From Tricharina praecox (taxonomy: Eukaryota), in assembly GCF_024521635.1 (NCBI RefSeq), contig NW_026250405.1, positions 868,001 through 932,000 of the forward strand: 64,000 nucleotides of DNA, given 5' to 3'. The notes beneath the pieces are model-generated. The model made no database searches. It was given only the letters and a program-made list of their open reading frames with translations, and was not told the DNA's origin. A program made the translations under genes and the position numbers. Below are positions 40,301 to 45,681 of the stretch, piece after piece (positions within the stretch are counted from its first letter, which is position 1; the number at the start of each line of letters is the position of its first letter).

Positions 40301-43300
40301 CACAGCACTATATATCTTTCACGGGCACAGGAGTGTAAGGATCGGATAGACACATGCATTTCGCGGGTCCCAAAAGGGAACACTCGACAGAGGCAGAGGA
40401 AGACGGTCCCCGAAGTGCAAATGATGTAAGCACAGTACCCTGTGCCGGATGAGTGCATGCCCGTCCCAGTCCAACCCATGTTGCATGGAGATTATACGTA
40501 AGCGATATAAGATGACCCCGGACGGCAGCGTGATGCCGTGTGATTTCATCCCTTCGGCTGGTGCTGTGGTGTATCACTCGGTCACATACAGACACGCCGG
40601 GCATTAGGGATTTTCTGCTGTCAGCGGATCGGTCGAGCGCGGGATTGAGTGGTTCAGCTATGTCAATACGTGCTAATCCGGCAGGCTTATCTAGTGGCCT
40701 ATCAAGTGGCCTACGGATTGACCTATACGTCTATCCCTTCCATGCCTTGCTGCGATGGATCCGATACCTGTGCGCAGCTAGGTAGAGGTGAAGTGTTGCA
40801 ATACATCACTCGAGCCCTTAGTCGCGTGTATGTACTGGGAGAGCTTTCTACACCACCTACTCACGCTGGAGGGGTGGAGTGGCGAGGCTACATTCGGGGA
40901 TCGGAACGGAATTGTGTCTGCAAGAGCAGGAGTTGTCTGCGAGGGGAGGAGGAGCTGCCAGCGAGAGCAACTTGCCACGATGGACTAGTGTCTTCGGCCC
41001 AGCGAACTACTACTGTTGCAACTTGCAGAGCGATGGGAGAGCTGTCGGCGGGAGGCAGCAGGAGGATGCAGCAGGAGGATGCAGCAGGAGGAGGACGTAG
41101 CTGCGGGAGGAAGCGAATGGGGCAGCACCAGCGTTGAGGGGTCCAGTGGTGCTGCATCCTCTCTTGGCCGTCTGCGTCTGCGTATGCTTCTGCTTCTGCT
41201 TCTTCCCTTTCTTCTTCTTCTTCTCCCTCTTCTTCTTCTTCTTCTTCTTCTTCTTCTTTTCATCACCATCATCATCCAGAAAGACGACCAACCTCACATC
41301 TTCTATTTTCCTCTGTGTGTGCTTTCTTCTAAATCCCGCCTCCGGCCTGGGGAAGTGTTGGCCAACGAACCACTCCCAAAACTACCTTCGACTTGAACAG
41401 CCTCAGCTCGCCTTGTCTTGTAACTTTTGCTTGCTATGGTGTTTTGTTTCGTCCCAAGTTGCAAACTTGCATGGAAAAATCTGCGAGATCGATATGGAGA
41501 ATCTTCATTTTGTACAGAGAACGTAGTACGTACAACCCATGGTGGTGGAATCCATTCGTAACTGATTTCAGTTCATGTAATGTACTTAGCTGCAGTGGAC
41601 AGCGCATAAATCATTCTTTGGGGCAGCAACAAAATACCAAATACCGTAGATATTGGAGGAAGAAACGGCAGCAATGGTCCATGGAAGTCTAGGTAAGATA
41701 CCAATGGGCACAGTACATAGACCAAAGAACCGGCAGATGAAATATGAACCAACAAAGTCAACGAAAAGGAACATGAGAAAATGGTATATTGACGAACTAG
41801 AACTAAAATAAAAAAGCAAAAACAAAGGGGAGGTGTTTTCCCTCGATCACCACCTGTTTATGTAGCCACACTATCAGTATACGCACACCGGGGGGTTCGT
41901 TTTAACTCACTCGGCATGCGTCGTCTTCGGTCCTCTCGTAGACCCAGCCCAACAACGAAACAATCTCGTCCTCCTCCCAATCAGCTCCCGAGGAGGAGGG
42001 GGAATGGCGCCGAAGCGCTGGAGCGATGTTCTCCGCTCGTTGCGACTTCCTTGAGGTCGCCGGCCATGACTCATGAGCATCGTGCCCGCAAACATGGCCA
42101 GCTCCGCGTGCCGCGTGCAACAGGAGCTGATTGGTGGGCGTCTTGAGGAAATGTGTACCTGGGTTCCAGTATATAGGAACCCGATGCAGATGGTAGGCAT
42201 CTGCCCCTGCACCCCCCCAGCCATTGATGACAGTAAAAATCACGGGGTTCTTGAAATTGCCGGTAAGAGAATTCTGGTCAGCGGAGACTGAGGATGAGGG
42301 CGGGTGTGGTTCTTACCTGGCTTTGAACTCTGCGCCTTTGGTGGTCGGCCGCGGCTGCCGCTCCTTGGAGATCCTGGACGACTGCTTGGGAATTGACTTC
42401 TTCGCTGCACGAGGCATTGTGATGGTGTGGTGGTTAAAGCGGAAGGTTTGTGGTGAGAGAGAGATAGTGGGGGTGTAGGCTTGCGGAGAGAGAGATTGTC
42501 TGTGTGTGTCGGTTGGTTGAGAGAGAGAGAGGGAGGGAGGAAGAGAGAGGGAGAAGATAACGTAGCGCGGCAAAGAATCGGCGAAAATGAAGAATGAGTG
42601 AGAATTTGAGGTTCTATTCAACTTCGAAGAGCCAGCTTAGCCCTCTGCTGCCACCGGCTAGACCCAGATTCAATTCGCGAAAGGACACCGAGTGATATTG
42701 GTGATCGCAACTCATCCCTACATACGAGGTAGCCATAACTAAGCGCCTGGCACCTGGCACCAGTGGATCTCGATGAGACCGCTGGCTCTGCATAGCTTTC
42801 GCAGGGCGAGGTGGATCTCTTGCCTAGACTCTGGTGTGTGTACGCTTGGCCGTTTGGCCCGCTCAGCTGCTTCCCCTTGGAAGTAGGTAGTTCATGTGAT
42901 TTTCTTCTTTTTTAATCTGTCTCCCTCTACTGTAGCTAACCTGAATGAAGGAATATGAGTGAGCGTTGGTAATTTGCTTGTATGGGGGCAAAAAATCCTG
43001 TCCACCATCCCCGCATACATCTCGATCGAGTGAGAGCTCATTACTGCCGAGCGCCAGCATAGATCTCCTCTTGTAACAATGTAGGCATGCTTTCTATCAG
43101 CCTTTGTAACATCTTTGTGGTGGGGTTGGCGGGGAACTGGGCTGGCACAACGACGGTCGCACACCGGGAGCGGAGAGCGTGAGATAGGTACAATAACACG
43201 GGTAGGTGCGTTTGGGCAACTACTCCCCGCCCTAGTTCACACGACGTTTCTCGTGTGAAAATTCTGGCGATGTTTTCTCGCCATTCTAAGGAATCAACTG

Positions 43301-43347
43301 GTCAAGAGGCACTGCAAGCTTATATACAACGTGCAGTAACTCCAGGC

Positions 43348-44452
43348 TCACATCTCCTTCCTGACCAAGACTCTCGACTCAACGGAGTCAATCCTCTTAC
43401 CAATCTTCCTCATCTCATTGGTCGCAGCCTTTGCTGCCTCCTTCTGCTGCTGCATAGTCTCCTCGAAGACATCCCTCATCCATCCGGGAATCGGTGCCTT
43501 CCCCGGCTTCTTTGTGGGGTCCGACGGCTTGTAGTTGTACACCACGATGTCCTCGAGACATCTCGCAGCTACGCGCTGATGCTTCTCGCTCAAGACTATG
43601 AAGGTTAACCCACTGGCCCCACGGCGCGCGTCAAGGGACATACTGATGACATCCAGCCCAAAGGAGTCGTCCTTGATTTTCCCAAGCTTATGATAAACCG
43701 TGACCTTGTCGGGGTACTCCATCGGCTGTCCTCGATCCCATCAGCGCCCCTATCACCCCACAGCCCATCCACAGAGAACATACAAACTTGTAGTCGACAT
43801 TGATACTCCTCAGGATCAGCCCGAGGCCTCGCGGCGTCCACAGGTCGCTCCACCTAGTGTTGTTCGCGGGATCGACGTGTTTCGCAAGGTTCCACGCCCA
43901 GTTGATGCGCGCGCTCTCCGCCCACCGGTTGTACGTAACGTTGTTGACATGGCCTAGGTGTCTCGATCAGCGCGTTCGATTCGACGGCGTGGGCGCACGC
44001 GTGCGCGCGGACAGACGTGGCGTACCCTTCCCTCGTCAGCCTCGTCCGCACTCTCTGATCTCTATGAAACATACCATAGAATCCTACACCCCCACCACCG
44101 TCGCATCAGCCGGTGCCCCTAGCTAGGTAGAGTACTCCCTCCCTCCGTGTCTCGGAGGAGAACAAACCATATCGCCCCACGCAACCGGCAGTCTATACAG
44201 CCCTCTTCTCTCGGCAGAGATGAGATAGCCCTCAGCGCCCGCAATATACCTCCTCCACTCGCGAGTCATGTCCTGCAGGATCTGCCCGGCCTCGTCGACT
44301 TCGGCCGCCGTGCACCCGTGGAAAAATAGTCGTCCCAGACGCGTTTTTTGGTCCGAGAGCCAGCGCGCGTTGTAGGCACTGTTGTGGCGACGCTGCTGGG
44401 GCGCGAGGAGGGTGCGAATGCACGGAAGGCGCAGGCGCATCTTCATCGCCAT
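43348..44452 (-). CDS. Hotdog-fold (4HBT-like) thioesterase, probably mitochondrial (exons 44452-44168, 44083-44075, 44026, 43953-43784, 43725-43644, 43595-43348)
   Basis: Basic N-terminal presequence. Reconstructed motif VAWGDMDSMGHVNNVTYNRWAESAR, followed by GLILRSINVDYKFPMEYPDKVTVYHKL and SEKHQRVAARCLEDIVVYNY, typical of fungal thioesterase-like proteins. Confidence 0.88.
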
Positions 44453-45681
44453 GGTTACTGACTTGAGGAGGAAGGAAGGCGTCGGAGTAGGAGTCGTTGC
44501 CCCGCCGCGGTAGTCGTGGATACCTAGTGGGGTTGGTGGGGGTGGTACATAAACGACAAATTCGGATAACTATCGGAGCCCCCCGCATAGACATGGGCCG
44601 AGGTGTGGGGTCGAATGTTACAGGAACTGAAGAGTCCACATCCGAAGGATAATATTGGGAGAGCTCGTAGAGGCTTTATTACTGAGCTTTGTGGATTTCA
44701 GCTTTCGACTTCGTCATGTGAGAATGATGTGGATCATGGACGGTCATGCAACTAATCAGCATTTATCACTCTCTACTACCTAAGCGAAAGCCATCACATA
44801 GTGGGAATAAGTTTGACTTCTTATGTCCATGTCTTTGGAATCCAGGAAGATCGGCCAGTTCATCTGTATGATACCGCCCGAGCTCTTGGAGGAAAAAGAC
44901 CATATTGTCTTGAGGTGGCCTCAGTATACGCAAGTGCTTCCACTGGGTACCGAACGTGAGCGTTTTCATCATGGAGATGACATTGACTTCCGTATTCATC
45001 TTGGAATGATACCTCGAACATCCAACTAGGCTGGAAGTACGAGTATATGTACCCTCTTGTAAATTGCTTAGATGAGAATGTAGGTACTGCAGATCAATGA
45101 AACATCACAAAGTAATACTCGACTGTCCGTTCACATGGAAATTCCAAGATAGGTACCTGACTCCCCCTTGATCCCTCCCCACCATTCAGACCTCGATGTC
45201 GCCTAGTCACTACAAGAAACCTCGACATTCTTCGAATACCGGTAGCAGTTTTACGAGGATACTTCCTCGTTATCGCATCCATCAATCGTTTTGTGGTTTT
45301 TTTTAAAAAAAAATCATCAATGCACTCGGCCTTATGTACCGTAGATCATGACAGGTACAGGCGGGTCCACCAATCATTTTTTGTGCCATTATCAGTGCCT
45401 TCAACCTTAATTGGATCGTGGTAGACACACTGCTTTCTCTTCATTATCCATGCATATAGGTACCTATATCAATGGGATAGCCAAACACGTAAGCCGAGTG
45501 GTATTTTGTGAAGAATACTAATTAGGCAGCACCTACCATAGCGCGATAGGGCAGCAGACAACTAGCGCTAGGGTATCTGCTGCACTTCTATATAAGCTGT
45601 ATCCTCCTCCACCGGTAAATTCTCACATCTGGATAAGCAGCCAGCTCTTCCCCCAAACACTTTCTCAACTACCTGTGCAAC

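Follow-up and report, generated by a model that had tools for sequence, protein, structure and literature searches.

A probable single-nucleotide exon in the DSMGHVNN motif of a predicted hotdog thioesterase gene of Tricharina praecox and its recurrence in related fungal loci

In a stretch of 64,000 nucleotides (nt) of Tricharina praecox (NCBI RefSeq assembly GCF_024521635.1, contig NW_026250405.1, positions 868,001 to 932,000 of the forward strand; hereafter the window, in whose numbering all positions are given), we found that the single G at 44026, which lies within a six-exon gene for a 4HBT_2 hotdog thioesterase on the minus strand (44452-43348), is very likely a real exon of one nucleotide. 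In the nuclear gene of T. praecox, or of a near-identical strain, this exon is in all likelihood included constitutively. The finding is carried by the sequence of the mRNA, by that of the genome, by an intermediate from which only the upstream of the two adjoining introns had been removed, and by the conservation of the arrangement among related loci.

Read on the minus strand, the 9-nt exon GATTCTATG (44075-44083; Asp-Ser-Met), the Asp of which is the conserved D of the D-x-x-G-H-V-N-N motif, is followed by an intron of 48 nt (intron A, 44027-44074) having the donor GTATGT, the motif GCTGAC (GAGGGAAG) with a branch-like CTGAC whose A at 44036 lies 9 nt before the 3' end, and the acceptor GAAG. 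The G at 44026 comes next and forms the first base of the Gly codon GGC in DSMGHVNN. It is followed by a phase-1 intron of 72 nt (intron B, 43954-44025) having the weak donor GTACGC, the motif GCTGAT (CGAGACACCTAG) with a branch-like CTGAT whose A at 43967 lies 13 nt before the 3' end, and the acceptor CTAG, and the sequence continues from 43953 as GCCATGTCAACAAC. Both introns are complete, each with a GT donor, a branch-like motif, an AG acceptor and a spliceable length. Retention of the G gives a product of 264 residues that reads WGDMDSMGHVNN, whereas removal of 44074-43954 as a single 121-nt intron shifts the frame (...DSMAMSTT...) and leads to the first stop, TGA, 48 codons on.

Transcript and genomic evidence was taken from Logan contigs of public runs, which were compared with positions 43300-44560. 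Spliced contigs at least 99% identical to the window were found in three runs from three studies (X2, X3 and X5), and these runs were treated as RNA because their contigs are spliced. The joint 43954/44167, with the eight letters CATAGAAT in between, was alike in all three, at depths of 169.1 (X2 record 7), 13.9 (X3 record 9) and 554.8 (X5 record 11). With one G on each side, a matter of aligner placement, these letters become GATTCTATGG on the minus strand. The mature contigs of the three runs accordingly read ...GAT ATG/GAT TCT ATG/G/GC CAT GTC... (slashes mark splice junctions), carrying the one extra G and encoding DSMGHVNN; intron B and the upstream intron 1 are gone from them, as are the downstream introns of 58 nt and 48 nt. 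The only GT-AG parse of this mature mRNA requires a 1-nt exon, and no single GT-AG intron fits it. A preliminary description of the locus had deduced from the letters of the DNA the 9-nt exon, the 48-nt intron at 44074-44027, the G at 44026 and the 72-nt intron at 44025-43954, together with a frameshift to TGA upon 121-nt removal and DSMGHVNN upon retention of the G; all its coordinates and lengths were right, both translations were reproduced, and the cDNA it predicted, ...ATG GAT TCT ATG GGC CAT GTC..., was recovered exactly in the contigs of X2, X3 and X5.

The same description had predicted a partly spliced intermediate, and this was present in X2 as a contig of 224 nt (record 6, depth 84.5) composed of 44196-44074 and 44025-43925, with 48 nt skipped between CT..AC borders (cut +1). 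In it, intron A was removed alone at the internal AG, and intron 1 and intron B were retained. Since the inside of intron A (bin 44031-44073) had a depth of 0 among the X2 contigs, this record is not contaminating genomic DNA. No contig of X2, X3 or X5 had the reverse form, with intron B removed and intron A retained, although contigs drop rare forms. A second 48-nt intron of the gene (43596-43643) was spliced in all three runs, and introns of this length are therefore spliceable in T. praecox.

The mature cDNA would be equally compatible with the one-step removal of a single non-canonical intron of 120 nt, having either TA-AG (ATGG/TATGTT...CCTAG/GCC) or GT-TA boundaries (ATG/GTATGT...ACCTA/GGCC), in which case the internal AG-G-GT would be coincidental. 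X2 record 6 argues against such an event, as the 48-nt piece alone had been removed there at the internal AG, and so do the separate branch-like motifs of the two parts, 9 and 13 nt from their 3' ends. To our knowledge, neither TA-AG nor GT-TA belongs to a known class of spliceosomal introns. Taken with the comparative data given below, these observations make a single 120-nt intron highly improbable.

An error in the assembly or the sequencing, namely a G or C missing near 44075 or 43953, would turn the arrangement into an ordinary 10-nt exon followed by a single phase-1 intron, or else into a frameshifted pseudogene. In favor of such an error, the read-through open reading frames of other fungi have ..T-G-HVNN at their end, as would suit a phase-1 intron, and the related locus L007 has ATGG/GTAATA. 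In a DNA contig of 949 nt from a soil metagenome (X1 record 2), however, positions 43316-44264 were matched with 0 differences and 0 gaps, at the low depth of 6.84, and no indel over the locus was listed in any run. Moreover, the RNA-type contigs keep an intact frame, and 42 other loci share the layout. The indel-free DNA match and the RNA-type contigs together dispose of the indel and pseudogene explanations as well as of the public gene model discussed below, and we attach a negligible probability to the indel. Nor do the contig data agree with the specific variant in which GGG became GG at 44075 and the ancestral exon had 10 nt. None of the outcomes that had been named beforehand as refuting the one-base exon, that is, an indel, another frame-restoring junction or frameshifted contigs, was found among the contigs.

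Two further contigs of the soil metagenome matched the locus. X1 record 4 differed from the window by one base at 44366 (C>T on the plus strand), which is synonymous in Ala codon 29 (GCG to GCA). The match indicates that a near-identical strain lives in that soil. X1 record 3, a contig of 16 kb, matched only 43434-43454 and 43970-43987, about 20 nt each with loose ends, and is probably an unrelated G+C-rich sequence.

The gene product is a predicted 4HBT_2 hotdog thioesterase. The 170-nt exon downstream of intron B (43784-43953), which starts GC CAT GTC AAC AAC, encodes HVNNVTYNRWAESARINW... and holds the core of the hotdog fold, alone (56 residues) scored 27.1 bits against Pfam PF13279 (4HBT_2) at a cut-off of 25.5, and PF13279 is carried by the 120 fungal relatives listed. 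Among these 120, DSMG stands directly before HVNN in 31, close variants such as DVMG, DSMS, DCMN and others occur in more, and many of the other models break exactly at the DSMG-HVNN site. The bacterial homologues with solved structures 2fuj and 3qy3 have the contiguous sequence W.DMDS[MY]GHVNN. These matches are in good agreement with DxxGHVNN as the motif of the family, as had been proposed in advance. The spliced fungal protein and the bacterial structures thus have W-G-D-M-D-S-M-G-H-V-N-N in common, to which the fungal protein adds about 80 residues at its N terminus and a tail of about 70 at its C terminus. The Asp of DSMGHVNN is presumably the catalytic residue of the 4HBT family.

The 170-nt exon was 100% identical to P0001, a 277-residue NCBI protein named for T. 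praecox, and the RNA-supported model was identical to P0001 over its first 95 and last 165 residues. Between the identical parts, P0001 has RSESADEADEGRVRHVC, 17 residues derived from intron sequence, where the RNA-supported model has DSMG. The segment corresponds to a 49-nt exon on the minus strand (44013-44061; RSESADEADEGRVRHV plus T), with its acceptor after CATAG and the donor GTCCGC, and is composed of the G with sequence from introns A and B on either side of it. That this exon is used, giving WGDM-RSESADEADEGRVRHVC-HVNN, is the deposited annotation, and the frame is kept with an AG acceptor and a GT donor. The joints it requires, 44167/44061 and 44013/43953, were nevertheless in none of the X2, X3 and X5 contigs (contigs drop rare forms), its donor GTCCGC is poor, and its product lacks the family motif DSMG and with it the conserved Asp. 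Only the RNA-supported model yields D-x-x-G-H-V-N-N complete with this Asp. We accordingly give practically no credence to the 49-nt exon: the public T. praecox gene model is wrong at this segment, where the conserved Asp is lost.

DSMG before HVNN was found in none of the eight public Pezizomycete models (P0001-P0006, P0043 and P0086), and only that of Pyronema domesticum has DSM-A. In the models P0002, P0003, P0004, P0006, P0043 and P0086, which belong to Sphaerosporella, Trichophaea, two Tuber species, Pyronema omphalodes and Peziza echinospora, the region is left out, cut short or read through, which suggests that the same tiny exons may have been missed in these six.

For comparison, JGI metagenome contigs were scanned with an alignment of the exon, and 80 loci were obtained, of which 76 reach far enough upstream and four are cut by the contig end. 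Each was parsed from D-x-[MFL] to H-V-N-N, allowing no more than two GT-AG introns, each 38 nt or longer, and exactly three retained bases. A one-base exon was the sole solution in 42 of the 76 loci, the base always being G; four of the 42 allow a second formal parse via another AG-C-GT. The remaining states were a two-base exon GG (AAG/GG/GTGAGT...CAG/C CAT) in seven loci, a single phase-0 intron in 19, a single phase-1 intron in one, and no intron at this place in seven. Clustering of the loci and the window at 95% exon identity resulted in 56 clusters, and the one-base exon was present in 30 of these, including the window, with AG/G/GTA in 30 of 30. The conservation of AG-G-GT in orthologous loci that the preliminary description had envisaged was thus observed both at the level of loci (42/76) and at that of clusters.

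When six Pezizomycete-like copies were aligned, the splice signals were invariant and the intron interiors had diverged. The first base of the codon before His was G in 30/30 one-base-exon clusters versus 11/20 clusters without intron B, in which Asn, Gln and Ser codons also occur before His; this difference indicates that the G is held by splicing and not by the protein. A search for transcript-derived proteins that match one-base-exon loci in other species, with minima of 94% identity and 80 residues, gave no pair of genome and mRNA for a second species, and the matches concerned only intron-less, 2-nt-exon or read-through loci. In the Aureobasidium-like loci (L064-L069 and L072; for example L064, at about 1373-1500), the 2-nt exon GG is required for DSMGHVNN. 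The public model of A. pullulans, P0075, which is 98-99% identical to L067 and L069, reads DSMTSHVNN via an acceptor 6 nt upstream, and the public model P0096 reads DSMGHVNN.

The probability that AG-G-GT arises by chance was estimated by shuffling the interior of the 121-nt stretch 2000 times, requiring both parts to be at least 38 nt and leaving branch-site matches uncounted. AGGGT fell at an allowed place in 5% of the shuffles of the window stretch, which lends some support to a coincidental AG-G-GT inside a 120-nt intron, and AGGGTA in 1.3%; across loci, the average for AGGGT in shuffled interiors was 4.3%. By these rates the sequence alone is only suggestive. AG/G/GTA is, however, invariant in the 30 clusters that need the one-base exon, with surrounding intron sequence that cannot be aligned, and given the RNA and comparative data it is certain that the arrangement is more than chance.

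Splice signals were counted in one representative of each of the 30 one-base-exon clusters. A G at position +5 was found in 28/30 upstream donors versus 10/30 downstream donors (Fisher p = 2e-6), the latter being mostly GTAC.. or GTAT.., and the acceptor AAG was found upstream in 24/30 versus downstream in 8/30 (p = 7e-5). Fungal acceptors usually prefer C or T before AG. Intron A ranged from 46 to 344 nt (median 66.5) and intron B from 48 to 95 nt (median 56.5), and intron 1, hence the 9-nt exon, was present in 24 of the 30 representatives.

On the basis of these signals, a reaction sequence can be proposed in which two complete U2-type GT-AG introns adjoin the G (...ATG/GTATGT..GAAG/G/GTACGC..CTAG/GCC), and each would be recognized as a short fungal intron by intron definition and excised in a reaction of its own. 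The strong intron A (GTATGT, with a branch site 9 nt from AAG) would leave first, and its removal would fuse the 9-nt exon and the G into the 10-nt exon GATTCTATGG, followed by the donor G/GTACGC of intron B. Intron B with its weak donor, and intron 1, would leave later, yielding W-G-D-M-D-S-M-G-H-V-N-N. We somewhat favor A-first as the usual order, and X2 record 6 would fit an order that is usual or even obligatory. Locus L007 (1-1053) of a Tuber-like fungus is also consistent with it. This mRNA-like contig, with UTR-like (untranslated region-like) ends and an open frame, keeps only intron B (ATGG/GTAATA...GGGTAG/GCC), and the other intron positions of L006 and L019 are empty in it; it comes either from a transcript in which intron B was still unspliced or from a genome that has lost the other introns.

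The preliminary description had further supposed that skipping of the exon could serve as an on/off switch. In such a switch, omission of the G by removal of all 121 nt would produce a frameshifted transcript targeted to nonsense-mediated decay (NMD) and would thereby tune the enzyme level. The logic of the layout would suit this, and the weakness of the intron B donor in most lineages (+5 G in 10/30) and the abundance of the intermediate in one run could each mean slow or regulable splicing. Nonetheless, no contig of the three runs joined 44075 directly to 43953, with the proviso that contigs drop rare forms, and there was no sign of condition dependence. The on/off or NMD switch, for which the data gave no support, is therefore speculation, and we consider a regulated exon very unlikely.

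To place the states in an evolutionary frame, loci were labelled by their best tblastn matches to named proteins (54-98% identity), and the classes assigned to the matched proteins are those we take them to belong to. By these labels the one-base-exon clusters comprise six of Pezizomycetes (including the window), eight of Lecanoromycetes, 14 of Dothideomycetes and two of Eurotiomycetes. The two-base-exon clusters number three, all Aureobasidium-like, with L067 and L069 being 98-99% identical to A. pullulans P0075, and the phase-0 clusters include seven Leotiomycete-like, five Sordariomycete-like and two with a weak Lecanoromycete best match. A quick LG+G4 tree of 81 rows was then built from stitched tblastn pieces, with each cluster represented by a single locus and with 25 named proteins and the window added. 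In its labelling, L045 and L059 counted as one-base-exon loci though cut upstream (L045 clusters with L046, and L059 shows AAGGGTAAAC), and L009 was left unscored.

In this tree the Pezizomycete group had an SH-aLRT (Shimodaira-Hasegawa-like approximate likelihood ratio test) value of 99, and the window stood beside L002 and L003 (98). Of the 14 phase-0 rows, 13, including the two with a Lecanoromycete match, fell into one weakly supported group (84) that also holds the Leotio- and Sordariomycete references, and L010 lay unplaced just outside. Three changes over 55 rows account for the presence or absence of intron B, as against six for intron A. The Purpureocillium and Hirsutella proteins, which we take to be from Hypocreales, formed a long branch (1.29) inside the Dothideomycete-like group, apart from the other Sordariomycete reference; this placement could reflect a paralogue, a transfer or a long-branch artefact.

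In the accepted tree of classes, Pezizomycetes are an early branch, and Leotiomycetes and Sordariomycetes form a sister pair. Judging from the comparison of these sequences, the one-base exon was probably already present in an early ancestor of the filamentous ascomycetes. The simplest history would comprise an ancestral one-base exon, a single loss of intron B in the Leotio-/Sordariomycete pair, scattered losses elsewhere, and a one-base move of the donor in Aureobasidium; both the age of the exon and the direction of these evolutionary changes are what we infer. Loss of intron B would leave the single phase-0 intron of the Leotiomycete- and Sordariomycete-like loci, and a 1-nt shift of its donor would create the 2-nt exon of the Aureobasidium-like loci. 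A more far-reaching proposal, which we advance tentatively and put slightly below an even chance, is that the exon has been kept since that early ancestor in Pezizomycetes and in Dothideo-, Lecanoro- and Eurotiomycete-like lineages by a dedicated heptamer AAG/G/GTA, with the weak downstream donor and the unusual AAG acceptor enforcing upstream-first removal. It may at the same time be a hub of 1-nt intron shifts that need no twin introns (stwintrons), in which downstream loss would give a phase-0 intron, upstream loss a phase-1 intron, and donor slip a 2-nt exon.

Several points weigh against the reading set out here. As to the transcripts, all RNA evidence consists of contigs and not raw reads, which puts proportions, rare isoforms and lariats beyond its reach; X2 and X5 were guessed to be RNA and X3 to be DNA, none being on record as RNA, and the three may not be biologically independent cultures. 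Mature cDNA alone cannot separate a one-base exon from a non-canonical 120-nt intron, and the splicing order is drawn from one contig in one run and from L007. As to the history, the class labels depend on best matches of 54-98% identity and on the classes to which we take the matched proteins to belong, the phase-0 clusters L026 and L034 have a Lecanoromycete best match, and the tree is a quick one from stitched pieces, many of whose deep forks are unsupported.

The remaining parts of the gene, all on the minus strand, were in line with the RNA-type contigs. The coding part of exon 1 (44168-44452; 95 codons) is identical to residues 1-95 of P0001 and ends TGG GGC GAT ATG, encoding WGDM. It is covered by X2 record 8 (44167-44533) and X5 record 11, and the 5' UTR extends to at least 44533. 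Intron 1 (44084-44167; 84 nt, GTTTGT...CTGAT...GTGTAG) is in phase 0; it is absent from the spliced contigs of X2, X3 and X5 and still present in X2 record 6. Downstream of the 170-nt exon there follow a 58-nt GT..AG intron (43726-43783; joint 43725/43784, which skips 58 nt with CT..AC borders in X2, X3 and X5), an 82-nt exon supported by translation and RNA-type contigs (43644-43725), the second 48-nt intron, also GT..AG (43596-43643; joint 43595/43644, skipping 48 nt with CT..AC borders in the same three runs), and the last coding exon (43348-43595), with the stop TGA at 43350-43348 and a 3' UTR reaching at least 43300.

An RNA-backed exon of the smallest possible size means that the filamentous-fungal spliceosome can use a 3' and a 5' splice site one base apart, and such splicing has apparently been stable over a very long time. 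The family offers a natural series (1-nt exon, 2-nt exon, phase-0 intron, no intron) for the study of one-base intron moves and splicing order. Its interest lies in the depth of conservation, the series of derived states, the direct intermediate and the systematic failure of public models at the site, and annotation pipelines need to provide for AG-N-GT wherever an over-long intron breaks the phase.

Among known systems, recursive splicing at the AG/GT ratchet points of Drosophila and vertebrates leaves no base behind and serves very long introns. The thioesterase gene resembles it in the stepwise 5'-to-3' removal and in the use of a 5' splice site right behind the just-used 3' splice site, and differs in that one base is kept and the introns are of about 50-70 nt. 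A parse by recursive splicing, with a zero-length exon, was set aside, the site being AG/G/GT with one base retained.

Stwintrons are defined by an external intron whose donor, branch element or acceptor is split by an internal one and which can act as an intron only once the internal one has been excised; the mature mRNA retains no base of either (PMC5587772). The preliminary description had related the present arrangement to them. A stwintron parse was excluded on the sequence, however, as both introns have intact signals in the unspliced sequence. No splice signal of either is split by the other, and the mRNA keeps one base, so that the locus is by definition not a stwintron. Both systems share two consecutive splicing reactions within one short stretch in Pezizomycotina, and in each of them the loss of either intron from the DNA leaves introns one base apart between lineages; unlike stwintrons, the thioesterase introns are complete from the start. 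Fekete et al. (2017, PMC5587772) suggested that [D1,2]/[A2,3] stwintrons can lead to a 1-nt intron shift, to which the thioesterase layout would be a second, simpler route.

The closest counterparts are other one-base exons. APC11 of Arabidopsis, a plant gene, has a single-nucleotide exon (Guo and Liu, 2015, PMC4674806). In both cases the one-base exon is constitutive, lies between two spliceosomal introns and had been annotated wrongly in public records; the function of the APC11 exon was shown by reporter constructs, and the thioesterase exon is known from sequence and contigs.

The CYP621A P450 genes of Fusarium contain a one-nucleotide exon with the same AGGGT, which the authors present as the second case ever and the first in fungi (Nelson and Syed, 2026, PMC12940212). 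The two share the AG/G/GT core, a G in a Gly codon of a highly conserved motif, short flanking introns, an apparent single intron about twice the usual size, gene models that fail without the G, and confirmation by SRA transcript data. The gene families differ, and the G is the first base of its codon in the thioesterase and the central base in CYP621A. Conservation is described there within Fusarium (20 orthologues), versus loci resembling four ascomycete classes for the thioesterase, which also has derived states (2-nt exon, phase-0 intron, no intron) and a partly spliced intermediate. The authors propose that a cryptic AGGGT rescued a 1-nt deletion in CYP621A; given the wide conservation of the thioesterase exon, no such rescue is needed there.

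In a long-read annotation of Coprinopsis cinerea, the excerpt at hand gives 13 exons of 1 nt, 57 of 2 nt and 27 of 3 nt (PMC12230235). The earlier assertion that 1-nt exons are very rare thus has to be relaxed for fungi in view of the 13 listed there, and the accompanying one, that gene finders usually miss them, is upheld by the failure of the public models here. Tiny exons evidently recur in that intron-rich fungus and break gene models when missed, as they do in the thioesterase; as far as the excerpt extends, those data are a genome-wide count in a basidiomycete that gives neither evolutionary depth nor splicing order for single genes, and ours concern a single ascomycete gene with a proposed age and splicing order. 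Among the full texts of CC-licensed (Creative Commons-licensed) papers in PMC and on bioRxiv, we found no literature on this thioesterase exon. Its kind is already in print, in APC11, CYP621A and Coprinopsis; what is new is an example that is probably unusually old, a one-base exon kept across fungi resembling four ascomycete classes.

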